This document shows positions 1-35,335 of a stretch of 64,000 bases of DNA, piece by piece. The stretch spans positions 86,500 through 150,499 of the forward strand of contig JAZTXM010000013.1 in NCBI GenBank assembly GCA_045636425.1, given 5' to 3'. Both the position numbers and the translations under genes were made by a program. How positions within the stretch are numbered: the stretch's first letter is position 1; every line of letters begins with the position of its first letter. This DNA is from Clostridia bacterium (GTDB taxonomy: Bacteria > Bacillota > Clostridia > UMGS1883). A model generated the notes under the pieces. That model searched no databases and was not told the DNA's origin. It saw only the letters and a program-made list of their open reading frames with translations.

Positions 1-147
1 ACATTGGCCTTTTGATGTTTCAAGACAAACATCTGTCAGCACCTTCGTTTTTTTGTAATCCTTTTTTATGTGTTCAATAGTAATCATAATATTCAATCCT
101 TTGCAAAGGCTGAGTGCTTATTATGCAACTCAGCCTTTTTAACAGTA

Positions 148-2013
148 TTAGTAGCCGTATTCGTAGTCGTATTCGAAATAATCCTCTGATTGAGGCTGTA
201 AATAATATTGAAGTTCCTCATCTGCTTGTGTAATAGCATCGGTTATTTCTCGGGGAGCTCCCGCGGATTTAAGATTTTTACTTAACTTATTAAGACTTAA
301 ACCGGATAACCAATCAAGCGTTTCGCTTTCTTCCCCTACTGAAATATAGTTGTGGGGAATGTCAATTTCTTTTTGTGGGGGTTGAATTTGTGACTTTCCA
401 TTTAACAAAAAGCAAAGTTCGTTGCCCTTAGTTAACGAGAGTGTTACATCTTCTGATTCTTTTGGTTTTATATTTGATTCAAGAGTCAGTTTTAAGTCAG
501 ACACCAACGATGCAATTTCTCCCGTTGCAATGCTCTTTATTTGCTCCTTTACAAAGTCTGTAAGTTCAAGGCTGATTTTGCCATTGAATATTCCATTTTT
601 TGAGTCTTTTGTATTATATTCCGAAACGATTTTTGCAAGCTTGTTTCCTGCGGCGGTTATGTAAAACGTTCCGGATTTTTTATCACCTGAAGTCCTTCCA
701 TTTCCCTCAAGACTTACGGAGCTTAAAAAGCCTGCACCGGCATTAATTTTCATTGCATAATCTTTTCCTGATTCCAATGAAATTGATGAAAAAGAAACTC
801 CGTCCTTCTCAAGCCCGAAACCTACCAAATCTCCTGCATTGTTTACCCAAATGTTAAAGCGGATAAGCTCCTCCCTGTCCCCTTGTGTGTTTTCGGCTTC
901 AGAAATGATTTCGTCGATTCCGAAAATCATTTCTGAATATACACTTTCAAAATCAGCATCAACTGCGTCTAATTCACAAAATTCTCTGATAATATTTTTT
1001 ATTTCATTATCTGTTTTTACTTCTTTCAGAAATGCAACAAGCATTTTCCTAAGGAGCTCCTCATTTACCGATACGGAAAGCTTTGTGCAGCTTTGTTTAA
1101 TATCGCCTGCCTTCAGTTTTTCTGTGTCTTCCGATACATTGTCCACACTGTCGATCACACTGCAAATGTACTTATAGAGTAGACTTTGGGTTGTTTTCTC
1201 ATCAGGGATGAGGTCCATAATCTCGCAAAGAGATTGAAACTCTGCTGAATCCATAAGTGCCTTATACGCATAAAAAGGGTTGTCATAGTAATCATAACTG
1301 TCAAATACAATCTTGATTGCTTTGTTATTAATTTCAGGGATATCAAAGTAAATTCCACTGTCATCTATTGCGGTATTCAAGGAAAGAATCTTTTTTCCGT
1401 TTATTGATGCATCTATTTCAGAAGAAATATCCGTTCCAACTCTGGCAGATTCTCCTGAAAATGTTATCTTTTTAATCCAATCTATCTTATCTGTAATATC
1501 ATCTAATTCGTTCACGTCGGCAGCTTCAAGAATGTCATAAAACCCACTTCCGAATTGAAGTGTTACTTCACCTTTCTCCTTTATATCGCCAAAAAGCGAG
1601 TTTGAGTCTGAAATAGCTGATAAGGTGGCACCAATCTCATCGGTGGAATCCTTTATTTCACGCTTAACAACTACCTTGAAGTAGTCTTCAGGGGAATAAT
1701 AGAGCTTTTGCGCCATGTTTTTGATAACAGGAGCAGCATACACTATTATGGATGACAGCAGTATTAACACTGCGGCAATTATAACAGGTCTGTGCCATTT
1801 TTTACGAGGCTTAGGTGCGGGTGTTGCGGCAACGCTTTCCAAATTTTCTTGTGTCACAACCGGGTGTTGAAGATTTATATTTCCGTCTAAAGCTTCAGCT
1901 TCAATCTTTGGGTCCCCACCTAACAAATCTTCAGTACGATTAACGCGCTTTCCGCACGACTGGCAGAATTTATCGTTTTCATTTAATAATCTTCCGCAAT
2001 TTTCACAAAACAT
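148..2013 (-). CDS. Membrane protein with N-terminal zinc ribbon (hypothetical)
   Basis: 621-aa ORF. N-terminus has CxxC...CxxC (MFCENCGRLLNENDKFCQSCGKR). A hydrophobic TM segment (IIAAVLILLSSIIVYAAP) precedes a large extracytoplasmic region. No catalytic motif recognised. Confidence 0.5.
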   Translation of the reverse strand: MFCENCGRLLNENDKFCQSCGKRVNRTEDLLGGDPKIEAEALDGNINLQHPVVTQENLESVAATPAPKPRKKWHRPVIIAAVLILLSSIIVYAAPVIKNMAQKLYYSPEDYFKVVVKREIKDSTDEIGATLSAISDSNSLFGDIKEKGEVTLQFGSGFYDILEAADVNELDDITDKIDWIKKITFSGESARVGTDISSEIDASINGKKILSLNTAIDDSGIYFDIPEINNKAIKIVFDSYDYYDNPFYAYKALMDSAEFQSLCEIMDLIPDEKTTQSLLYKYICSVIDSVDNVSEDTEKLKAGDIKQSCTKLSVSVNEELLRKMLVAFLKEVKTDNEIKNIIREFCELDAVDADFESVYSEMIFGIDEIISEAENTQGDREELIRFNIWVNNAGDLVGFGLEKDGVSFSSISLESGKDYAMKINAGAGFLSSVSLEGNGRTSGDKKSGTFYITAAGNKLAKIVSEYNTKDSKNGIFNGKISLELTDFVKEQIKSIATGEIASLVSDLKLTLESNIKPKESEDVTLSLTKGNELCFLLNGKSQIQPPQKEIDIPHNYISVGEESETLDWLSGLSLNKLSKNLKSAGAPREITDAITQADEELQYYLQPQSEDYFEYDYEYGY

Positions 2014-2149
2014 AATTATTTCCTCCCTCTTTTTTGGGTTCTCTATAAGATAATTATATTATATTCTTACATATTTTGTCAAGGATTGTATAAAGAATAA
2101 TCAAAGCCAACCGACAAACGGTTGGCTTTGATTATGGGATTAATATATT

Positions 2150-2526
2150 TTAATAATATTTTCTGTCGCTCATATCCTGAACACTGCGAAGTGCTTCACC
2201 GAAACGTTGGAAGTGAACTACCTCGCGTTCTCTCAGGAATTTAATGGGTTCAATTACATCGGGGTCATCTGCAAGGCGAAGAATATTGTCGTAGGTCGCT
2301 CTCGCTTTTTGTTCTGCTGCAAGGTCTTCCGTAAGGTCAGCTATAACATCAGCTTTTGACTGAATGTATGCTGCTGTCCATGGAACACCTGCCGCCGACG
2401 CAGGATAAATACCTGTGTTATGATCAACATAGTATTTATCAAAGCCCGATGCTTTGATTTCTTCGGGGGTAAGGTTGCGTGTTAACTGATACACAATAGT
2501 ACCAATCATCTCAAGGTGGGCAAGTT
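2150..2526 (-). CDS. cotJC: Spore coat protein CotJC (manganese-catalase family), 3' segment of a gene split by an intervening element
   Basis: The translation (...TEELAHLEMIGTIVYQLTRNLTPEE...DLAAEQKARATYDNIL...FLREREVVHFQRFGEAL) matches the C-terminal two-thirds of CotJC / Mn-catalase. The reading frame is open upstream of the annotated Met as far as a stop just inside the element junction. There is no N-terminus here. Confidence 0.75.
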
Positions 2527-2870
2527 CTTCCGTGCCTGAATCCGAGATGATTTTGCTTCCTTATATTTATTGAATCTTTTTTATGTAGCAATCAAGTGTA
2601 AAAGTTAAAATACAAGGTAAGAAAAAGATGATTTTAAGGTTATTTTATCTGGTTTGGGCATAAATCGATTCATCTTACATGTATATTAATGGGAGTAATT
2701 TAATTATTGATGAAAAAACATTCAACGTTGGTTATGTGATAGCAATATTTAGTACTAGTACTAGTCAATAATGACAAAAGAAAGTTGGAATATGTATTTT
2801 ATGTGAAATATATTGTGTTTGGTGGAGAAATATGGTATAATATATAAAAAACAAGGAAGGAAAATGAAAT

Positions 2871-3341
2871 ATGAAAAGAATTGTTGCTATTTTAATGACT
2901 GGATTGATTTTATTAACTTTGTCTGCTTGTGGACATGAACACGATGTTAATGTTGGTATATGTTCTACTTGTGGAGAATTTCAAAATCAAGATTTGGTAA
3001 CATCAATAAAAAACAAACTTTCGGAAGCAAATAGTGAACTTAATATAGCATTGTCGTATATGAGCAGCAGTAATGACAATAATTCAACAGTATATAATGC
3101 CATTATCAATATGCAAACATACATAGATAATTCAAAAACATATTTGAATGAAGCAAAGGATATGTGTGGCGAATATAAAGAATTAAATAGTACAAAAAAT
3201 GCCATAAATACTGCTATTAATAAAATACCATCTATTCCATCAAATAGTAGTACAAGTTCATTAGAGAATTATTTGGACAATTTGAAATTATACGTTGCTG
3301 CATTAGCAGAGGCACAATTAAAAATTTTATATGTTAAATAA
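2871..3341 (+). CDS. Lipoprotein (hypothetical), element cargo
   Basis: Signal peptide with lipobox (LLTLSAC). RBS GGAAGGAAAATG upstream. Asn/Ser-rich mature part. Confidence 0.5.
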   Translation: MKRIVAILMTGLILLTLSACGHEHDVNVGICSTCGEFQNQDLVTSIKNKLSEANSELNIALSYMSSSNDNNSTVYNAIINMQTYIDNSKTYLNEAKDMCGEYKELNSTKNAINTAINKIPSIPSNSSTSSLENYLDNLKLYVAALAEAQLKILYVK

Positions 3342-3358
3342 TTAGGAGTTAGATTGGT

Positions 3359-3769
3359 ATGAAGAAATATTTTTTAGTTGGTTTTATAACTTTAATATTA
3401 TTGGTAATGTGTGGTTGTGGTAATACCCAACACGAATATAAAATGGGGAATTGGTCAACAGCAAGAAATGATGCTGCTGACAACTTAGCAAGTGCACGTG
3501 AAAAATATGTTGGTGAGTATTATTCCTTTACAGGAGAACTGACATATATTGCTGAGGGGTATATTGCAGTTGACGAAGTAAATCCAGGAAAATATACTTC
3601 AGGTGTTACCTGTACTACCAAAGATAAAGATTTGTGTGATATAATTTTAGGCCTTAAAAAAGGTGATATGGTTACAGTAAAGGGAAAGATTACTGACATA
3701 GAACATGATGCATTAGGAAATACTGCTCAAATGGATATGGATGTTTATGAAATTATAGAAAAGGATTAA
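3359..3769 (+). CDS. Lipoprotein (hypothetical), element cargo
   Basis: Signal peptide with lipobox (LLVMCGC). Follows the previous gene after 17 nt. Confidence 0.5.
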   Translation: MKKYFLVGFITLILLVMCGCGNTQHEYKMGNWSTARNDAADNLASAREKYVGEYYSFTGELTYIAEGYIAVDEVNPGKYTSGVTCTTKDKDLCDIILGLKKGDMVTVKGKITDIEHDALGNTAQMDMDVYEIIEKD

Positions 3770-3780
3770 GGAGAATTTAT

Positions 3781-3999
3781 ATGCCTGTAATTTTTAGAGA
3801 TTATTGCACGTGTGGAAAATGCAAAAAAGAGTTTGAATGGGTAAGATTTGACTTGATTAGAACATCATCGTATGAAGTACAAACAATACCTAATGAACCT
3901 AAAGCCTATGTAATTAACCAAGATGGTAACAATTATGAACTTTCGGTTGTATGCCCATTCTGTGATTTTGAAAATATTTTTACTTATGAGGATAAGTGA
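3781..3999 (+). CDS. Small Cys-rich protein (possible zinc ribbon)
   Basis: 72 aa with CTCGKC...CPFCDF. RBS GGAGAATTTATATG. Confidence 0.35.
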   Translation: MPVIFRDYCTCGKCKKEFEWVRFDLIRTSSYEVQTIPNEPKAYVINQDGNNYELSVVCPFCDFENIFTYEDK

Positions 4000-4125
4000 A
4001 AAATTTGTTAAAAGTGACGAATTTTTATGCAGTTTTGATTAATTTTAATTATTTTTAGCATTTAACATTCAACTTAACATTGAGATTACAACATTAAAAA
4101 ATTTCGTCACTTTTTTTCGTTTCTA

Positions 4126-4160
4126 CTTATTGCGAAATTAGAAAAAATGTAGTATAATAT
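4126..4160 (+). promoter_or_regulatory. Sigma-A-type promoter (TTGCGA, 17 nt, TATAAT)
   Basis: The sequence ttgcgaaattagaaaaaatgtagtataat has near-consensus -35 and -10 boxes with a 17-bp spacer. Confidence 0.5.
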
Positions 4161-4164
4161 AATC

Positions 4165-4348
4165 ATAACAGATTTGTTATTGGTCGTATGAGTACGACAT
4201 CGGCACACTTATAGTTGTTATATAAGGTGGTTGATGGTTGGTGGTGGTCTTGCTGATAGGTCAGCAAGTTATATGAGAATTATAATAGAATAATGCCCTA
4301 TGGGGGTTGTTTGAAATGTGCCTTACCTTTGGTTAGGCACATTTTTTG
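4165..4348 (+). ncRNA. Candidate small RNA of about 180 nt inside the cotJC-intervening element
   Basis: A strong promoter (4126-4160) is followed by about 180 nt with several hairpins (gtcgta/tacgac; cttgctga/tcagcaag). It ends in an intrinsic terminator, aatgtgcc...ggcacatt plus a T-run. Only 8- and 19-codon ORFs are present. Confidence 0.3.
4313..4348 (+). terminator. Rho-independent terminator
   Basis: An 8-bp GC-containing stem (aatgtgcc / ggcacatt) followed by tttttgtgc. Confidence 0.5.
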
Positions 4349-4630
4349 TGCTTTTATATAGATAATATTTTTTCAGGGGGTGGTCTATGGCAGAGTGTTA
4401 AATATAAGACCTTTTGAGATTTGTGTTAGCGTTGAGCATCGGTGTCAAATAAGATGTAAAATTTTTTCAACCTAATTAATTTAATGTAGTTATGGGATAA
4501 AAGCGTCAGGTCGTACAAGAGAATTTTATGAATTTATCTTGTATGTGTCATGACAAGTCAGTTGAAGATATTGATGATTTTATGGAATTCAAATATTCCA
4601 GACTATATGAAATAAAGGGGGTGAAATGAG

Positions 4631-5161
4631 ATGTTATATGCTTATTTACTTGAAAATACTAAGAGAATTTATGAAATCAATAATAGACCTTTGTTTGAGT
4701 TGATAAGAGATTGTCACTTAAAGGACGAGCGTATCTTCATTGATTCAATGGGTGCAGATAGAACAGAATTTAAGGAGTTACAGTCAATTATTGCTGGTGG
4801 TGATACATTGATGATTCGTAGTATTATGGATATTGCTGATACGCCTATTGAAATTGTGAATTTGCTTGAATGGTTTGGTAGTCGTGGTATAGAGATTGTT
4901 TCAACACACGAGCCTGACTATGATTATAAAGAAAATTATAATTTAGTAGTAGATGTTATGGGTATGTCAGCAGAATTGACAGAAAAGAAAAGACGTTTAG
5001 GTATAGATAAGGCAAAGTTGGAAGGTCGTATGGGTAGAAAGTCTAATAAGGGAATTAAGGAAAGAGTTTTGAGATTGAAAGCAGCAGATTTTCCAAGGGA
5101 TGAAATTATGAAATTATGTGGTATTAGTTATAGTACGTATTATCGTATGATAAAAAATTAA
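4631..5161 (+). CDS. Resolvase-fold protein with the catalytic residues replaced, plus C-terminal HTH (pseudo-resolvase; possible regulator or directionality factor)
   Basis: Aligns to small serine recombinases (Hin / gamma-delta type) along its length. Arg8 and Ser10 are replaced (MLYAYLLENTKR versus GYIRVSTxxQ), and the DRLGR motif is replaced by MDIADT. The C-terminal helix-turn-helix is retained (ISYSTYYRMIKN). Confidence 0.5.
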   Translation: MLYAYLLENTKRIYEINNRPLFELIRDCHLKDERIFIDSMGADRTEFKELQSIIAGGDTLMIRSIMDIADTPIEIVNLLEWFGSRGIEIVSTHEPDYDYKENYNLVVDVMGMSAELTEKKRRLGIDKAKLEGRMGRKSNKGIKERVLRLKAADFPRDEIMKLCGISYSTYYRMIKN

Positions 5162-5645
5162 GATAATTTGCATCTAATTGCATCCGGATGAGTTAATGAT
5201 GGTCAAAATTAAATAAGATTGAAAAAATATGAATATATTTAATTTTGATATGTCAAGAACATTGTCAAATCAACATTTTTCATTTTGAAAATGATGGCAA
5301 GGGTAAATTGTTGATATAACAATCATTCAAGATGTTTTATAAAAATCAGGAAAATAAAAAGAACAGAATTTAAAAAACAAGGAAAGGAAACTCTAAAAAA
5401 TTTATGATTGGGGGTATCCTTTTGGGTAATAATTCATTTAGACAAGCAATGGCATCATATCTTTATAATGGTGATGTTATGTTTGATTCAAAAAAGAATT
5501 TTGTTCTTTCTACTGATGAAAAGAAAAGATTAACTAGTGATATAAAGATTGGTATATATAAAGAATTAAATAGTAAATCTCTCTTATCTAATGTTCAACT
5601 TTCTTTTCTGTTGGAAAAAGAAAAGAATAAAAATTTTAAAAATTA

Positions 5646-5675
5646 GTTGACTAAAGGGGTTGGTCACGTTAGAAT
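5646..5675 (+). promoter_or_regulatory. Putative promoter of the recombinase gene, with an overlapping imperfect inverted repeat
   Basis: TTGACT, 17 nt, TAGAAT. The elements tggtcacg and cgttgacca form an imperfect palindrome across the -10 box. Confidence 0.35.
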
Positions 5676-5721
5676 GCGTTGACCATCCCAAAGATAAAAT
5701 AGATAAGTGAGGTATAAGATA

Positions 5722-7422
5722 ATGGAATTTTTAAGTAATAGTAAAAATGTTTTAAGAAATTGTGTTTTATTAAATAATGGTATTAGTGATAAATCAAACA
5801 ATATAATTACAAATGTAATAAATGTTGCTGCTTATGCAAGGGTAAGTACAGATGCAGATGACCAAGTAAACAGTTTTGAATCACAGGTAAAATATTTTAC
5901 AGAATATATTAGTAAGCAAGAAAATTGGAATTTGGTTAAGGTTTATAGTGATGAGGGTATTTCAGGAACAAGCACAAAAAATCGTTTGGGTTTTACAACA
6001 ATGATTGATGATGCTTTGGCTGGGAAAATTGATTTAATACTAACAAAAGAGATTTCTCGTTTTTCAAGAAATGTTGCTGATACCATTCAATATACACGTA
6101 TGCTAAAAGAACATAATGTTGATGTGGTATTTTCATTGGATGGTATTGACACGAGAAATAGTGAATCAGAATTCAAACTTACTATTTTTTCTGCATTAGC
6201 ACAAGAAGAAAGCAGAAAGACATCAGAACGTGTCAAGTGGGGACAAAAAAGGCAGATGGAAAAAGGTGTTGTTTTTGGGCGCAATTTGTTGGGATATAAA
6301 GTTAAAGAGGGTAAGTTGTATCTTGTTGAGGATGAGGCTGAAATTGTCAAGTTAATTTTTCACAAGTACCTCAACGAGGGCAAGGGAACTCACATTATTG
6401 CAAGAGAACTCAAAGAAGAAGGCATAAAGCCTTACGACCCTGATGGCAGAGCAAAGTACAAGAATGATTGGAGTAACACTCAAATATTAAGGGTGTTGCG
6501 CAATGAGAAATATGTGGGTGACCTCTGCCAAAAGAAGACATATACAAAGGACTTTTTAGACCACAAAAAGCGTTATAATCGTGGTGTAGAAGAAAAGATA
6601 TACCTAAGAGACCATCATCCAGAGATTGCAATAATCAGTAGAGAAATGTGGGATGCAACACAGAAAGAGTTAGAAAGACGTACTACTACGGCAGAACAGA
6701 AGTCCAAGCATAGTAACAGATATTGGGCATCTGGAAAGGTTTTTTGTGGGGTATGTGGGGAAAGGTTTGTAAACAAGATTAAAAAGACGTCTGTGGGTAG
6801 TTCAAGAGCGTGGAATTGCTTAAATCACGTTAAGGCTGCAGCTTTTAGAAATGCAGAATGTTCTATGAGTGAGTGGGCAAATGATAAAAGTTTAAAGAAT
6901 ATTGTCTTATATATTCTTAATGTTCTTGTAGATAACAAAGAAGAATTAAAACAAGAAATAATCAAGGATATAGCAGATTTAAGCATTGAAGACAAAACAG
7001 GGTCTATTGATAAATTACAAAGCAAGATTGATAAGTTAGAAAAAAGCAAACTCAAGCTTATTGACATAAGATTAGCAGATGAAATAAAACAAGCAGATTT
7101 CTTAATAAAGCAAAAAGAGATTGAAGATGCTATTTCAAAGTTGTATGATGAATTAGATAAGGTAAAAGAGTTAGAGAATATTAAGCAAAAGCAACAAGAT
7201 AGAATGAATAGTATTATTGCTGAAATTGATAGGGTGCTGACCTTAAAGGATGAAGATTTAGACCACCTTTTAGGAACAGTTACACAAAGCATCACAGTAT
7301 ATGAAGGTCATACAGTTGTGGTAAGGCTTAAAGACATCCCATTTAATTTTAAGGTGGCTTATAAGTCAACAGGTAAGTTAGATACATATAGGACGGAGAT
7401 TTTAAGTCTTGAAGTGGTATAA
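5722..7422 (+). CDS. Large serine recombinase (SpoIVCA-like site-specific recombinase)
   Basis: N-terminal resolvase domain with AAYARVSTDADDQ, the catalytic Ser motif. A long recombinase domain is followed by a coiled-coil C-terminus. RBS GTGAGG lies 8 nt before the ATG at 5722. The ORF is open from 5707. Confidence 0.9.
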   Translation: MEFLSNSKNVLRNCVLLNNGISDKSNNIITNVINVAAYARVSTDADDQVNSFESQVKYFTEYISKQENWNLVKVYSDEGISGTSTKNRLGFTTMIDDALAGKIDLILTKEISRFSRNVADTIQYTRMLKEHNVDVVFSLDGIDTRNSESEFKLTIFSALAQEESRKTSERVKWGQKRQMEKGVVFGRNLLGYKVKEGKLYLVEDEAEIVKLIFHKYLNEGKGTHIIARELKEEGIKPYDPDGRAKYKNDWSNTQILRVLRNEKYVGDLCQKKTYTKDFLDHKKRYNRGVEEKIYLRDHHPEIAIISREMWDATQKELERRTTTAEQKSKHSNRYWASGKVFCGVCGERFVNKIKKTSVGSSRAWNCLNHVKAAAFRNAECSMSEWANDKSLKNIVLYILNVLVDNKEELKQEIIKDIADLSIEDKTGSIDKLQSKIDKLEKSKLKLIDIRLADEIKQADFLIKQKEIEDAISKLYDELDKVKELENIKQKQQDRMNSIIAEIDRVLTLKDEDLDHLLGTVTQSITVYEGHTVVVRLKDIPFNFKVAYKSTGKLDTYRTEILSLEVV

Positions 7423-7497
7423 ATAAAAGGGCAAAGCATACTGAAAACAGTAGGCTTTGCCTATCTTTGTATAAAGGAGCAAAATCATCGCTGATAG

Positions 7498-7683
7498 ACC
7501 TATATCATTCAAAGTAGACTTTGTTATTTCGTTAGGCATGCTGAAGCGTTGACTGAGATAACGTAACGATGCTCCGAGTTCCCCGTCGGGGCCACCATAC
7601 TGACTCATTATAATTTGTGCCATTTTAGGGTTTGGGTTTTTTATTTTAATCGGAAACTGTAACTTTTTTTCATATATCCACAT
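7498..7683 (-). CDS. cotJC: Spore coat protein CotJC, 5' segment (N-terminal 62 codons)
   Basis: MWIYEKKLQFPIKIKNPNPKMAQIIMSQYGGPDGELGASLRYLSQRF...TLNDIG matches the CotJC N-terminus. Homology stops at the element junction and the frame runs into element sequence. Confidence 0.75.
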
Positions 7684-7686
7684 AAT

Positions 7687-7950
7687 TTAACTCCTTTCTT
7701 TTTCCCAAGTCCAAGGGTTCTTTGACCATTGCCACGGAAGTTTATTCGGAGTTTGTGTTGCAGTTAATGGTCCGTATTTTTCCTCAAATTCTTTTCTTAA
7801 GGATTTGGCATTGCGAACAGTTTCGGTGTAAAGCTTGAGAGCACGTTCGCAATTGGGGTGAGTGTTAAGATAAAGCTGCAGGTCAAGCGCAAGGAAATCT
7901 GCCTCCTGTACTTTTTTAAGAAGGTCTCGTCTGTCATTACATTCTACCAT
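7687..7950 (-). CDS. cotJB: Spore coat protein CotJB
   Basis: 87 aa. A/FLALDLQLYLNTHP...YGPL...PWTW matches the CotJB family. It lies immediately upstream of cotJC. Confidence 0.8.
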   Translation of the reverse strand: MVECNDRRDLLKKVQEADFLALDLQLYLNTHPNCERALKLYTETVRNAKSLRKEFEEKYGPLTATQTPNKLPWQWSKNPWTWEKERS

Positions 7951-8279
7951 AATTTCCTTGCCCCCTCTTTTGTATTGAATTCATTTCCGTAGACACCTAA
8001 AGGCTTATCCAGGGACGGAAATGCTGTTCCGCGTTCCAATGCCTTTTCCCTACTATACGGATTTTCGTACTTTTGGTACGGAACGTATGCATAGGCAAGC
8101 GGATAATTATCATGAATTCCGCAGGATGCTGTTTCCTCAAGCGGAACAAGCTGCATATTAAGCAAGTCTTTCATGCTGTGTTTTCTTCCTTTCCTAAACG
8201 TTATAGCGGGGAGTTCCCCGCTATTTATCATATTCAACACAGCCTTTTTTTGTGAAATGAAAAACAGACAAGCAATCAT
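7944..8279 (-). CDS. cotJA: Spore coat-associated protein CotJA
   Basis: Contains the AYAYVPYQKY...PSLDKP motif typical of CotJA. First gene of the cotJABC operon; its start may be internal. Confidence 0.6.
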   Translation of the reverse strand: MIACLFFISQKKAVLNMINSGELPAITFRKGRKHSMKDLLNMQLVPLEETASCGIHDNYPLAYAYVPYQKYENPYSREKALERGTAFPSLDKPLGVYGNEFNTKEGARKLW

Positions 8280-8308
8280 ATTGCTTGTCTGTTTTTGTTG
8301 TTTTAGTT

Positions 8309-9274
8309 TTATTTTTTCTGGATAAGATGAACTCCGAAACCACCGAATTCTTCTGCAAGATAGATGAACTTTCTTGTTCCATCGTCATTATATGTAGCAC
8401 TTTCTTCGTTGAACTTAACACCTTTTGCACCAAGATGGTAAATAGCTCTTTCAACGTTATTGGTAAGAATTGCAATATGACCGCACTTTCCGGGACCCAT
8501 TGACTTCATTACCTCGAACTGAGAACCAACGAACATACCCTTTGCACTTTCTTTTTCAATATCCTTACCCATAAGGAGAGAAAGCATATTTGCGGTAGTC
8601 TTTGCCTGCTCCTCACTTTCGTGGTTAATACCGATATGTCCGATTTCAAGACCAAGCATTGTGCTTACGGATTTCTTGGTAAGGTTTGTAATTTCATCCC
8701 ACTGGTCATTATCAATAAAGCTCTCTTTAACCATGAAGCTACCGCCGCAAGCAATAATTTTATTGCAACCGAGGTAATTATTAACGTTGTCAAGACTAAC
8801 GCCGCCTGTGGGCATAAACTTAACGTTGCCATAGGGTGCTGACATAGCCTTAATCTTGTCAAGTCCGCCGCTCTGCTCAGCAGGGAAGAATTTTACAACC
8901 TTAAGACCAAGCTCAAGTGCCTGCTCAATTTCAGAAGGAGTTGTACAACCGGGAAGCGGAGTAACACCCTTTTCAAGACACCATGAAACAACCTTGGGGT
9001 TAAAGCCGGGGCTTACGATAAACTTAGCACCTGCGTCAAGCGCTCTCTGTGCCTGCTCAATTGTGAGAACAGTACCTGCACCCACAACCATATCGGGATA
9101 AGCCTGAGTGATTGCACGGATTGCATCCTCAGCAGCATCTGTTCTGAATGTAACCTCAGCTGCTGCAAGACCGCCGTCAATAAGAGCTTTTGCAAGCGGT
9201 ACAGCCTTAGAAGCATCGTTAATTTTTATAACCGGAATAATACCGATGTTGTAAATCTGTTTTAACATATCCAT
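8309..9274 (-). CDS. eda: 2-dehydro-3-deoxyphosphogluconate (KDPG) aldolase with a C-terminal VOC-like extension
   Basis: The N-terminal roughly 210 aa match KDPG / KHG aldolase (IIPVIKINDASKAVPLAKALIDGGL...FMPTGGV). An extra C-terminal domain of about 110 aa is present. Confidence 0.75.
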   Translation of the reverse strand: MDMLKQIYNIGIIPVIKINDASKAVPLAKALIDGGLAAAEVTFRTDAAEDAIRAITQAYPDMVVGAGTVLTIEQAQRALDAGAKFIVSPGFNPKVVSWCLEKGVTPLPGCTTPSEIEQALELGLKVVKFFPAEQSGGLDKIKAMSAPYGNVKFMPTGGVSLDNVNNYLGCNKIIACGGSFMVKESFIDNDQWDEITNLTKKSVSTMLGLEIGHIGINHESEEQAKTTANMLSLLMGKDIEKESAKGMFVGSQFEVMKSMGPGKCGHIAILTNNVERAIYHLGAKGVKFNEESATYNDDGTRKFIYLAEEFGGFGVHLIQKK

Positions 9275-9299
9275 TGTTTTTTATCTTCCTTTCCCCAAT

Positions 9300-10331
9300 T
9301 TATCTCTGCACACGACCGCTGCCGTCGCCGCCTACAAGATTGTCAACCTCACCGCGACTTACAAGATTCATATCGCCGGGAATTGTGTGCTTAAGAGCTG
9401 ATGCAGCAACACCGAATTCAAGAGCATCCTTGAAGTTCTTTCCGTCAAGCATACCGCAAATTACACCGCCTGCAAAGCTGTCGCCACCGCCTACACGGTC
9501 AACAATGGGGCAAATTCTGTATTCTCTTGAATGATAGAATTCCTTTGTGTCTCTTGAGTAGATACAAGCAGACCAGCCGTTATCGGAAGCAGAGTGAGAA
9601 ACACGCAGAGAAGAAATTACATATTCAAAGTTAAACTTTTCAACCATCTGCTCAAATATACTCTTGTAGCCTGCAAGTTCAAGCTCGCCGCTTGTTACAT
9701 CTGTATCACCGGGCTTGAATCCGAGAACCTTTTCTGCGTCTTCTTCGTTACCGATACATACATCAACGTACTGCATAAGATTTGTCATAATACGCTGAGC
9801 CTTTTCACTTGACCAAAGTTTCTTTCTGAAGTTAAGGTCACATGAAACTTTAACACCCTTTGCCTTAGCAGCTTTAAGAGCAGCTTCTGTAAGTTCTGCA
9901 GCCTGGTCTGAAACGGCGGGAGTGATACCTGTAAAGTGGAACCAATCACAACCGTCAAAAATCTTATCAAAGTCGAAATCTTCCGCCACAGCAGTTGAGA
10001 TGGAAGAATGTGCTCTGTCGTACACAACGTTGGATGCACGCATGGAAGCACCTGTCTCAAGGAAGTAAATTCCGAGTCTTTCACCGCCGCGAGCAATATT
10101 ATCTGTTTTAACATTCATTTTACGAAGAGCCGCTACTGCACATTCACCAATGGGGTTAGAGGGAACCTTTGTAACAAACTCTGCATCATGTCCGTAATTT
10201 GCGAGAGAAACCGCAACGTTTGCCTCTCCTCCGCCGTAGCAAACATCAAACTCGTCTGCCTGCAGGAATCTTTCATTGTTTGGAGTTGAGAGACGAAGCA
10301 TGATTTCGCCCATAGTAACTACCTTTGCCAT
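9300..10331 (-). CDS. kdgK: 2-dehydro-3-deoxygluconokinase (PfkB family)
   Basis: MAKVVTMGEIMLRLSTP... and the C-terminal GGGDSFAGG motif. SD AGGAGAGG before the internal Met at 10331. Confidence 0.8.
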   Translation of the reverse strand: MAKVVTMGEIMLRLSTPNNERFLQADEFDVCYGGGEANVAVSLANYGHDAEFVTKVPSNPIGECAVAALRKMNVKTDNIARGGERLGIYFLETGASMRASNVVYDRAHSSISTAVAEDFDFDKIFDGCDWFHFTGITPAVSDQAAELTEAALKAAKAKGVKVSCDLNFRKKLWSSEKAQRIMTNLMQYVDVCIGNEEDAEKVLGFKPGDTDVTSGELELAGYKSIFEQMVEKFNFEYVISSLRVSHSASDNGWSACIYSRDTKEFYHSREYRICPIVDRVGGGDSFAGGVICGMLDGKNFKDALEFGVAASALKHTIPGDMNLVSRGEVDNLVGGDGSGRVQR

Positions 10332-10471
10332 TTTAACCTCTCCTTTGAAAATCATAATATATTTGACAATATGTCATCTTAACTATATAATAACATTTAG
10401 ATGTATTCCAGTCAACAATTATATTTTGTTAAATATCAAATATATTACGATTTTGAAAAAGGAGAATTTTT

Positions 10472-11362
10472 GTGAAAAAAGTAAATAAAGCTCCCCTTAA
10501 ACAGGAAATTTTTAAAAACGAAAGCTCACTTATGACCATATTCCGTTCGAAAGTTCCGCTTTTAACGGATATATTTGAGGAACATCATCATACGGCTTTT
10601 GAAATTACCATGGTGCTCAGCGGCGAAGGTATATATGCTACAAAGTCTACGGAATTTACATTTAAAAGCGGTGATATATTCTTTTTCAGTACTGATGAAT
10701 TTCATTGGATAAAAAAACTCAATCACGATTCCGAATTTATAAATATTCATTTTGAGCCGAGATTTATCTGGTCAGACAATTTCGGATTTTCAAACAAGGA
10801 CCTAATAAGAATTTTCTTTAACAGAAAGAAAAAACCACTTAACAAGATTTCATTTAAAACTGACTCCGCAGAAACAATAAAAGACCTGATATTTAAAATG
10901 GAAAATGAAATATCCTTAAAAAAGAATGAGTATGACACAATGCTAAAAATACATTTGGTAAATATTCTTGTGGAAATGTTCAGATTTTTTGAAGAGAATC
11001 TTACACAAACGGATATTTCCTATAGCAGTCAGTCCCTAAGATATATGGAGGATGCACTAAACTACATTGACGAGCACTTAGAAAATGAATTAACGCTGGA
11101 AATGCTCTCGGATGTCGCACACATGAGCAAAACTTATTTTTGCAGTCAATTCCGAAAGCTTAACGGTATTTCCCCATGGGAATACATAACCATAAAGCGT
11201 GTGGAAAGAGCCATTACATATATTAAAACAACGGATATGTCAAAATCCGAGATAGCTTTCAAATGCGGTTATAATAACACTGCTAATTTCTACTATGCTT
11301 TTAGACGTGTTACAGGAAAAGCCCCCGGAGATTATAATAAATCAGCTGATGTTTTGCTTTAA
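10472..11362 (+). CDS. AraC-family transcriptional regulator (cupin plus HTH)
   Basis: The C-terminus has a typical AraC HTH (ISPWEYITIKRVERAITYIKTT...GYNNTANFYYAFRRVTGKAPGDY). Confidence 0.75.
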   Translation: MKKVNKAPLKQEIFKNESSLMTIFRSKVPLLTDIFEEHHHTAFEITMVLSGEGIYATKSTEFTFKSGDIFFFSTDEFHWIKKLNHDSEFINIHFEPRFIWSDNFGFSNKDLIRIFFNRKKKPLNKISFKTDSAETIKDLIFKMENEISLKKNEYDTMLKIHLVNILVEMFRFFEENLTQTDISYSSQSLRYMEDALNYIDEHLENELTLEMLSDVAHMSKTYFCSQFRKLNGISPWEYITIKRVERAITYIKTTDMSKSEIAFKCGYNNTANFYYAFRRVTGKAPGDYNKSADVLL

Positions 11363-34131: not shown

Positions 34132-34197
34132 CAAAATCACTTGTCCCCTTGAGGCAATTTGCTTCAAGGGGCTTTTTTTATTTTAGGAGGAAAGATT

Positions 34198-35335
34198 ATG
34201 AGTAAAAGAGGAAATAACGAAGGCAGTATTGTAAAACGTAAAGACGGACGTTGGCAAGGAGCCGTAACAATCGGAAGAAATCCTGACGGCACTCAAAAGA
34301 GGCAGTATGTCTATGGCAAAACAAGAACTGAAGTTTCAGAAAAGATTAACTCTATTCTGTTTGATATTAATAATGGAACATATATTGATAAAAGTCAGAA
34401 TCCTACAGTAAAACAATGGCTTTACACCTGGCTAACCACTTATAAGAAAAACAGTATTAAGCCTAGGACGCTGGACCAGTATACAAGCATCATAAGATAC
34501 CATCTTATTCCGGAGATTGGCGACATACGATTAGTTGATCTCAAGGAAACCAATTTGCAAAGATTCTATAACAGGCTCTCAAAAGAAGGACTATCTCCAA
34601 GGACTATCCAGCTTATTAATACCGTACTATACGGTGCAATAAAAAAAGCTATAAAGTGCGGTCTGGTAATAAGAAATGTATGCGATGCTGTTGAGCTACC
34701 AAAACAACAGAAGAAAGAAAGAAAGGCGTGTATTAACTCCTGAGGAACAGGAAAGCTTACTGGAGGTTTTAAAAGAATCAGAATATGGTGCTATGTATAT
34801 CTTCGCTCTTTTCACAGGATTAAGAAAAGGCGAAGTCCTTGCTCTTACCTGGTCCGATATAGATTTAGCTAATCACTTAATTAACGTAAATAAAACTCTA
34901 GGGCGTGTAAATACATATGTTGATACAGGAAATAAGACTCAGCTTGTAGTAAGCACCCCAAAGACTCAAACGAGCATGAGAGTGATTCCTATCATCGAAT
35001 CTCTGATTCCACTTCTTGAAAAGCAGAGAAAACTTACTCAAGGCAGCCAGTCAAATCTTGTCTTTCCTTCGGACGCTGACACTTACATCGACCCCGGTAA
35101 CTATAACAGACTTTTCTACAAGCTTGTGAAGAAAGCCGGAATTCCCAAGGCTCACCCCCATTCACTCAGACACAGCTTCGCAACACGAGCGCTGGAAGCC
35201 GGACTGGACCTCAAAACAACGCAGGAGCTTTTGGGGCATAGTTCAATTGACATCACCGCCAATCTGTACACCCACGCCCTGTTGGAGCACAAGCAGAAAG
35301 AAATTAAAAAGCTTGAATCCGTGTTTAATTTATAA
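34198..35335 (+). pseudogene. int: Tyrosine integrase (phage/ICE type), frameshifted in an A-rich run
   Basis: The N-terminal SAM-like / arm-binding part (34198-34743) and the catalytic part (34676-35335; HSLRHSFAT, LGHSSIDITANLYTH) are in different frames. They overlap around AGAAAGAAAGAAAGG at 34712-34726. Confidence 0.75.

Follow-up and report, generated by a model that had tools for sequence, protein, structure and literature searches.

A stretch of 64,000 nucleotides from a Clostridia bacterium (GenBank assembly GCA_045636425.1, contig JAZTXM010000013.1, positions 86,500 to 150,499), referred to here as the window, contains an element that splits the spore-coat gene cotJC and carries a large serine recombinase (LSR) at its edge. 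Encoded within that element is a 176-aa protein with the fold of a small serine recombinase and none of its catalytic residues, which we have named psiRes. It is conserved under purifying selection, it lies directly upstream of the recombination module in nearly every readable locus, whether the element uses an LSR or a tyrosine recombinase, and it is accompanied by conserved dyad-symmetric DNA sites, one kind of which overlaps the promoter of the recombinase gene. From this co-inheritance, we infer that psiRes binds the sites and represses, and we hold with moderate confidence that it acts on the recombinase promoter as a dimeric regulator that binds an operator, most simply as a repressor, with the DNA binding, the dimer and the sign of regulation all presumed.

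Fold and Loss of the Catalytic Residues

psiRes is the product of the following open reading frame (ORF), which starts with ATG and has a strong Shine-Dalgarno sequence (AAAGGGGGTG) 5' of the start.

4631 to 5161, plus strand: psiRes, 176 aa, a catalytically dead small serine-recombinase homologue with a resolvase-fold N-domain, E-helix, Gly-Arg arm and C-terminal helix-turn-helix (HTH)

The Pfam Resolvase profile (PF00239) matches at 34.6 bits, against a gathering cut-off of 23.3, with psiRes residues 36-132 falling on profile positions 37-143 of 145, and HTH_23 matches residues 144-175 at 24.4 bits, just under its 24.6-bit cut-off. By phmmer against PDB sequences, psiRes matches Gin (4m6f, E 3.8e-4) and gamma-delta resolvase (1gdt, E 5.9e-4), the latter with psiRes residues 24-175 aligned to chain residues 22-180. 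PHROG 125, 'DNA invertase', matches with an E of 3.7e-13. An AlphaFold2 model, for which a 44-sequence family alignment was the input, has a mean pLDDT of 90.8 and predicts the topology beta1-aA-beta2-aB-beta3-aC/D-beta4, leading into a long E-helix (99-130) and then a three-helix HTH; the linker at about 131-139 is of low confidence. All 35 of the Foldseek matches in the PDB with E <= 0.001 are serine recombinases (gamma-delta and Tn3 resolvases, Sin, Gin and LSR catalytic domains), and the best full-length match is gamma-delta resolvase (1gdt_A, TM 0.65, E 2.6e-9). Since every significant structural match is a serine recombinase, a different fold is excluded, and the resolvase similarity is not spurious. 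Hence psiRes has the resolvase catalytic-domain fold and E-helix of the small serine recombinases, with the C-terminal HTH joined through a Gly-Arg minor-groove arm (G135-R136) that is invariant in the family. A preliminary description of this DNA had proposed resolvase/Hin-type homology along the protein with a retained C-terminal HTH and had named structure prediction and comparison with gamma-delta resolvase as the check. Both the homology (Pfam, phmmer, AlphaFold2 and Foldseek) and the HTH (the three-helix model and the aligned T169 and Y171) come through that check.

The catalytic positions were read from an alignment of psiRes with gamma-delta resolvase; five ordinary resolvases that the searches had turned up were included as well. 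In each line, the gamma-delta residue is given first.

R8, psiRes L7: lost
S10, psiRes N9: lost; Asn is nearly invariant across the 44 aligned family members
D67, psiRes M66: lost
R68, psiRes D67: lost; Asp is invariant in the family
R71, psiRes D70: lost
Y6, psiRes Y5: kept
D36, psiRes D38: kept
R45, psiRes R44: kept
G58-D59, psiRes G57-D58: kept
Gly-Arg arm G141-R142, psiRes G135-R136: kept
Recognition helix T174 and Y176, psiRes T169 and Y171: kept

The catalytic serine and the catalytic arginines are missing from all 44 members in the family alignment. Asn9 stands where the small serine recombinases have their nucleophilic serine, and L7, D67, D70 and M66 stand for R8, R68, R71 and D67. 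This residue pattern predicts that psiRes has no site-specific recombination activity. The preliminary description had noted that Arg8, Ser10 and the DRLGR motif were gone; in the alignment with resolvases, the whole catalytic set is seen to be replaced.

Selection, Breadth and Naming of the Family

Compared with three copies of about 95% identity in other Clostridia metagenome-assembled genomes, psiRes has a dN/dS of 0.06-0.17 at a dS of 0.18-0.31; to judge from these ratios, it is a functional gene under purifying selection. It is full length in all 44 aligned members, which are 31% to 96% identical to the protein of the window, and their alignment has 12 invariant and 27 nearly invariant positions. 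The most conserved stretch, EKKRRLGIxxAxxEGRMGRK plus C.IS.STYYR, comprises the end of the E-helix, the arm and the recognition helix.

A collection of 5.8 billion proteins contains about 55 clusters (at 90% identity) of the family at E <= 1e-29, and ordinary resolvases start only at E >= 3e-15, so the family is cleanly separated from the true resolvases. Of 1.84 billion cluster representatives searched exhaustively with HMMER, 151 matched, roughly half of them with an 'xYAYxLEN' N-terminus; proteins with 'GYARVS' appear only past an E of about 2e-8. There is no NCBIfam model that matches psiRes, and the sole name that its relatives carry in their sources, 'DNA invertase Pin-like', is a mis-annotation. 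The absence of a model or dedicated name agrees with the preliminary description, which had said that this is not a standard annotated component. In the full-text literature, among the papers covered by the search, we found no catalytically dead, inactive or degenerate resolvase family and no such partner of an integrase.

Two origins were considered and rejected. A phage or plasmid origin finds no relatives in IMG/VR and, in phage and plasmid collections, only true invertases and resolvases with less than 30% identity to psiRes. A recent duplication of the LSR, or of the 191-aa small recombinase that sister elements encode (see below), would leave pairwise similarity, and none is detectable with either (BLASTP against the neighbouring LSR, E 0.31). 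psiRes is therefore not a recent paralogue of the LSR, and the word 'paralogue' in the preliminary description was too strong.

Recombinase Partners

We collected 30 related loci (L001-L030), and the statements on partners cover those with readable downstream DNA. In nearly every one, psiRes is the same-strand, directly upstream neighbour of the recombination module. What lies downstream of psiRes falls into several kinds:

LSR, element in cotJC: the window, L002, L005-L007, L009, L010, L022, L027
LSR, element in another target: L017
Tyrosine recombinase of about 500 aa, islands at tRNA-Thr: L001, L003, L008
Tyrosine integrase of 410-422 aa: L020, L023, L028, L029, L030
Tyrosine recombinase of 194 aa, beside RHS-toxin loci: L013, L014

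There are two exceptions. L011 has no recombinase near psiRes, and in L025, the gene after psiRes encodes a small serine recombinase that looks active, and a possible tyrosine integrase lies farther downstream. The contigs of L016 and L024 stop before the downstream genes. psiRes is the sole element-encoded protein common to the LSR elements and the tyrosine-integrase elements. As far as gene neighbourhoods tell, it is a module indifferent to the chemistry of its partner recombinase.

psiRes and a tyrosine integrase make up the whole maintenance module of islands of 4-5 kb that adjoin tRNA genes (L001, L003, L008 and L023; L020 and L028-L030). The cargo of these islands is one surface protein, with an SLH domain, lipoprotein-like or membrane-anchored. 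L023, for instance, measures 4.8 kb, lies at tRNA-Ala and is bounded on both sides (4355 and 9175) by a 32-nt repeat of the 3' end of that tRNA.

Most of the sister cotJC elements carry an extra small serine recombinase between psiRes and the pair formed by the LSR and a 70-80-codon ORF directly 5' of it (orf80 in the window; see below). It is about 191 aa, has the signature GYVRVSS...DRFCR with Resolvase and HTH_49 domains, and looks active. Its copies are at 6971-7546 in L002, 7840-8415 in L022, 1104-1691 in L027, about 3400-3970 in L009, about 6890-7470 in L025 and 1103-1683 in L017, where the gene is split into fragments of 58 aa and 124 aa. The element of the window has no 191-aa recombinase. 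L002 also has a 148-aa ORF with a resolvase-domain match (7910-8356) that overlaps the start of the LSR gene and looks like a degenerate duplicate or a frameshifted N-terminal catalytic domain of the LSR.

The distant members of the family (31-37% identity) accompany very large RHS/YD-repeat toxin loci that also have IS110 transposases, and they lie at the 3' end of these loci (L013, about 100-11310; L014, about 600-11267; L011, about 100-10549). In L013 and L014, the distant psiRes is directly 5' of the minimal 194-aa tyrosine recombinase, an arrangement that could be a recombinase-driven toxin-cassette system.

Conserved Sites at the Promoters

The DNA around psiRes and the recombinase gene contains the following conserved or promoter-like features:

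5660 to 5686, unstranded: inverted-repeat candidate operator, 27 bp, TTGGTCA-N13-TGACCAt, over the -10 hexamer (TAGAAT, 5670-5675)
5647 to 5675, plus strand: sigma70-like promoter of the LSR gene, TTGACT-17-TAGAAT, directly 5' of the LSR
5215 to 5365, plus strand: conserved intergenic module 3' of psiRes, 151 bp
5262 to 5274, unstranded: dyad box A, TTGTCAAATCAAC
5311 to 5323, unstranded: dyad box B, TTGATATAACAAT; scores 17.4 with a leave-one-out position weight matrix (PWM), against a null maximum of 14.5
4080 to 4092, unstranded: dyad box C, TTGAGATTACAAC; leave-one-out PWM score 16.7, against a null maximum of 14.5
4130 to 4158, plus strand: sigma70-like promoter 5' of psiRes, TTGCGA-17-TATAAT, with 10 of 12 positions matching
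4163 to 4358, plus strand: conserved non-coding segment, predicted to fold strongly, of about 190 nt with a terminator-like hairpin at its end, a candidate leader or small RNA

The 27-bp inverted repeat has one match in the 64 kb, where 0.25 would be expected. Allowing at most one mismatch, TTGGTCA-N13-TGACCAA covers the -10 box of the recombinase gene in ten loci with an LSR and in four with a tyrosine integrase. A dyad site over the core promoter of the gene to be regulated, as in control of the type exerted by TnpR at res, is thus present at 14 loci. The repeat has 7-bp arms, and its half-site centres are 20 bp apart. The dimer sites of resolvases and invertases are 25-34 bp long: 28 for gamma-delta site I, 34 and 25 for Tn3 sites II and III, and 26 for hix. 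With its 20-bp centre spacing and 27-bp length, the repeat therefore matches these dimer sites in geometry.

The 151-bp module aligns without gaps over nine loci with LSR or tyrosine recombinases, at a mean column identity of 68%. Its identity to L002 and L023 is 52-60%, compared with 34-35% at the third codon positions of psiRes. A structured RNA as the cause of this conservation was rejected, given an RNAalifold energy of -0.82 kcal/mol (essentially no structure) and no Rfam match. Within the module, boxes A and B (consensus TTGAnATTTCAAC) are exactly 49 bp apart in 9/9 loci. Box C ends 37 bp before the sigma70-like promoter downstream of it. The strict palindrome GTTGA-N4-TCAAC is not enriched in the window, the boxes being more degenerate, and that pattern was replaced by leave-one-out PWMs. 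These recover boxes A and B, pick out box C in the window and detect more boxes in other elements, all intergenic and close either to cargo genes or to the promoter of psiRes. Copies within one element tend to share the same variant of the box; L002 has three that are near-identical. Enumeration of k-mers in the flanking intergenic regions was dominated by A/T-rich words and gave no informative shared motif, and the ISYS and ISRS variants of the recognition helix showed no clear correlation with the box sequence.

The 4163-4358 segment has a minimum free energy of -65.9 kcal/mol (z -6.0 compared with shuffles) and is 75% identical to its counterpart in L008, a tyrosine-integrase island, compared with 52% at psiRes third codon positions. 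It has no Rfam match, and divergent copies are too few for covariation. The sequences GTGCCTTAC, GTTAGGCAC and TGTGC in this segment could form alternative hairpins in the manner of an attenuator. Within the 300 bp 5' of psiRes, at 4400-4560, AAGYGTCR boxes recur, and positions 4546-4555 form a perfect palindrome, TGTCATGACA; both are conserved in L001, L003 and L008. TGTC is the outer core of the Tn3 and gamma-delta res half-sites, and by that analogy, these boxes and the palindrome may be autoregulatory. Just after the cargo genes, a 30-nt inverted repeat at 4010-4114 (AAAAGTGACGAATTTTT... / ...AAAAATTTCGTCACTTTT, 77% complementary) brackets box C and may be a terminator or a further regulatory structure.

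A Proposed Regulator of Recombinase Expression

We propose the following. psiRes would descend from a small serine recombinase that lost its chemistry and kept the E-helix, the Gly-Arg minor-groove arm and the HTH. A psiRes dimer would bind dyad-symmetric sites of its own element. The principal site would be the 27-bp inverted repeat at 5660-5686, within which the -10 of the recombinase promoter lies, with further probable sites at boxes A and B, between psiRes and the recombination genes (5262-5323), and at box C, 5' of the psiRes transcription unit (4080-4092). Binding would set the level and timing of LSR expression, and perhaps that of orf80, a likely recombination directionality factor (RDF), and the level of the LSR would in turn set how often the element exits cotJC. 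psiRes would probably act on its own promoter region as well. psiRes would then be the repressor half of the Tn3/gamma-delta TnpR at res with the recombinase half deleted, and the same cassette of regulator plus operator would be coupled to serine and tyrosine integrases in the related 4-5-kb islands. The two classes of element share cis-elements and, of their proteins, psiRes alone, and we count this in favor of psiRes as the binder.

Several points weigh against this proposal. Not every sub-group has both kinds of cis-element: the loci with the tyrosine integrase of about 500 aa have boxes A and B only, L020, L028 and L030 have the inverted repeat only, and the distant members L013 and L014 have neither. 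At 13 bp, the boxes fall short of a canonical resolvase dimer site, and the degenerate box pattern occurs at five other places in the window, mostly within genes. A host factor could be what binds the conserved DNA. Finally, the N-domain (N9, D38, R44, D58, R63, D67, D70) is more conserved than dimerisation alone needs, which hints at a further function and leaves room for a sensing role.

An extension of the proposal, speculative and rather improbable in our estimate, makes use of that last point. The former catalytic domain would have become a signal-receiving module, making psiRes a one-component switch through which a cellular cue (stress, for example, or the stage of sporulation) would act on the expression or the directionality of the integrase downstream, whether serine or tyrosine. 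The ligand of an invariant acidic and polar pocket (E8/N9, D38, D58, D67 and D70, with R44 and R63) would be a metal, a metabolite, a phosphoryl group or a partner protein. The portable, recombinase-agnostic 'excision controller' cassette would then consist of the protein, its operators and possibly the structured RNA upstream.

Alternative Explanations

The preliminary description had offered two roles for psiRes, RDF or repressor. That psiRes is an RDF or a Xis-like architectural cofactor, which binds the recombinase or DNA near the attachment (att) sites and promotes excision, is unlikely, though there is something to be said for it. psiRes occupies the classical xis position, directly 5' of int on the same strand, and in the L001, L003 and L008 islands, it is the sole non-cargo gene besides int (L023 adds one 69-aa ORF). 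RDFs are very diverse in structure, and L023 has one weak box-like match between the int stop codon and the att repeat. Against this, the partners of psiRes belong to two unrelated recombinase superfamilies. RDFs of LSRs act through protein contacts with the C-terminal domains of the integrase, domains that tyrosine integrases do not have. An LSR RDF is specific to one LSR and inherited with it, whereas psiRes also occurs with three kinds of tyrosine integrase; a Xis is a small winged-helix or MerR-like DNA-bending protein, whereas psiRes is predicted to be a 176-aa resolvase plus HTH. By PWM and pattern scan, the att ends of the window element have no site of the box type or inverted-repeat type; the conserved sites associated with psiRes are at promoters, 1.8-3.4 kb from the nearest att junction.

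The element also encodes a different candidate for this function.

5404 to 5646, plus strand: orf80, 80 aa, no known family, candidate RDF

Homologues of orf80 (68-81 aa) occur only in LSR elements, directly 5' of the LSR (in L002 and L010, of an LSR-derived fragment), and are absent from the tyrosine-integrase elements. orf80 has no match in Pfam, NCBIfam, PHROG or PDB; its conserved C-terminal half reads LSTDEKKRL...IGIYKEL..KSLL...QL..LLEKEK. Since orf80 tracks the LSR and is absent with tyrosine integrases, it is a better RDF candidate than psiRes, and on this distribution, we consider it an uncharacterised candidate RDF family. Of the two roles first offered for psiRes, then, that of repressor fits better with the varied partners, the LSR-only orf80 and dyads located at promoters rather than att, and that of RDF fits less well.

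A second alternative is that psiRes is a dominant-negative or regulatory subunit that assembles with an active serine recombinase, either the LSR or the 191-aa protein, into mixed dimers or tetramers and so poisons or directs catalysis. The E-helix dimer interface is kept, several cotJC elements encode an active-looking small serine recombinase right after psiRes, and the 151-bp module directly 5' of that gene has a res-like layout, resembling a res array. We regard this as very improbable all the same: the element of the window has no small recombinase, half of the contexts have a tyrosine integrase only, the intergenic module is still conserved where no serine recombinase is present, and the sequences do not suggest a matched interface, psiRes having no detectable pairwise similarity to either the LSR or the 191-aa recombinase.

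That psiRes is a decaying, functionless relic, or a recombinase still active through another nucleophile, might be argued from the loss of all catalytic residues and from Y5 (= Y6) and often T10 remaining near the former active site, but it is scarcely credible for a gene with a dN/dS of 0.06-0.17, a full-length ORF in 44/44 members at 31%-96% identity with 12 invariant positions, and conserved aspartates (D67 invariant) for catalytic arginines, a charge reversal incompatible with phosphoryl transfer.

The cotJC-Interrupting Element

The element and the genes around it in the window are as follows:

2537 to 7498, unstranded: intervening element in cotJC, ~4.96 kb (about 4,962 bp), with the crossover within a shared AGG
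7499 to 7683, minus strand: cotJC 5' fragment, the first 62 codons, following cotJA and cotJB
2150 to 2536, minus strand: cotJC 3' fragment; cotJC resumes at about 2536
7944 to 8279, minus strand: cotJA
7687 to 7950, minus strand: cotJB
2540 to 2565, unstranded: left terminal inverted repeat, element side, 26 nt, 85% complementary to 7470-7495
7470 to 7495, unstranded: right terminal inverted repeat, element side, 48 bp past the LSR stop codon
2871 to 3999, plus strand: cargo genes, two lipoprotein-like ORFs (2871-3341 and 3359-3769) and a 72-aa Cys-rich ORF (3781-3999)
5707 to 7422, plus strand: LSR, 571 aa, with Resolvase, Recombinase and Zn_ribbon_recom domains

The gene order is two lipoprotein-like genes, the 72-aa Cys-rich ORF, psiRes, orf80 and the LSR, whose stop codon is 76 bp from the element junction. 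When the flanks are joined within the shared AGG, cotJC again encodes an intact protein, a CotJC of 189 aa and of the Mn-catalase type. The element is thus skin-like: an insert in a sporulation gene, splitting cotJC at 2536/7499, with an LSR at its edge and with flanks whose precise joining, as expected on excision, restores the ORF. This bears out the earlier placement of psiRes inside an element beside an active LSR, as the adjoining LSR is intact. Promoters for sigmaE, sigmaK, sigmaF and sigmaG were sought by eye in the conserved blocks, with no convincing match.

Elsewhere in the window, an ORF at 34159-34743 has an N-terminus typical of tyrosine integrases (…GSIVKRKDGRWQGAVTIGRNPDGTQKRQYVYGKT…), which suggests a second, unrelated mobile element.

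Significance and Comparison with Known Systems

In gut and rumen Clostridia, the psiRes family appears to be the conserved control gene of a set of miniature integrative islands, 4-5 kb in size, and its partners there come from both major classes of site-specific recombinase. The reuse of dead enzymes as regulators is well known for kinases and transposases. If psiRes and its sites are indeed a repressor and operator, they would explain how integrases are kept silent in very small elements, including those that split sporulation genes, and they would offer engineering a compact natural protein-operator pair for the control of large serine integrases. The same reading would correct a systematic mis-annotation ('DNA invertase', 'recombinase family protein') and point to orf80 as a candidate RDF family.

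Among known systems, TnpR of Tn3 and gamma-delta shares with psiRes the fold, the E-helix, the Gly-Arg arm and the HTH, with recognition helices RSTYYR in psiRes and RSTVYK in TnpR. The psiRes gene likewise adjoins dyad sites that overlap promoters of recombination genes, and its candidate operator has the resolvase-like 27-bp geometry. However, psiRes lacks S10, R8, R68 and R71 and so is predicted to be unable to recombine, its putative targets encode other recombinases (LSR or tyrosine) rather than a transposase, and its identity is only about 20%, in a family cleanly apart from the true resolvases. The Hin and Gin invertases, which are similar in size and domain order, give the best sequence matches of psiRes in PDB and PHROGs. 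They differ in that psiRes is dead, no invertible segment or enhancer is evident, and phage collections hold only distant true invertases. With Xis of the lambda type, psiRes shares the position directly 5' of int and a DNA-binding HTH, but its fold and size are different, and its candidate sites in the window are at promoters, with none at the att ends.

RDFs have been described for several intervening elements of sporulation genes: GirX of gin, SprB of SPbeta and CD1234 of skinCd (PMC5595907, PMC5499854, PMC5025042). The gin element is small and non-phage and has an LSR and the 42-aa GirX (PMC5595907). psiRes is likewise an accessory gene, and its element, too, carries an LSR and splits a sporulation gene. 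Those RDFs, in contrast, are small and specific to their own LSR, whereas psiRes is resolvase-fold, occurs with tyrosine integrases as well and sits beside orf80. A skin-like element that splits cotJC, with an LSR at its edge, is known in Laceyella sacchari (Galperin et al., 10.1101/2022.02.25.481979). The element of the window is alike in both respects, and here, precise joining restores the gene. The survey of skin elements in that work reported no gene common to them except the recombinase (10.1101/2022.02.25.481979); here, by contrast, a cassette of psiRes plus its candidate operators is conserved across elements and across recombinase classes.

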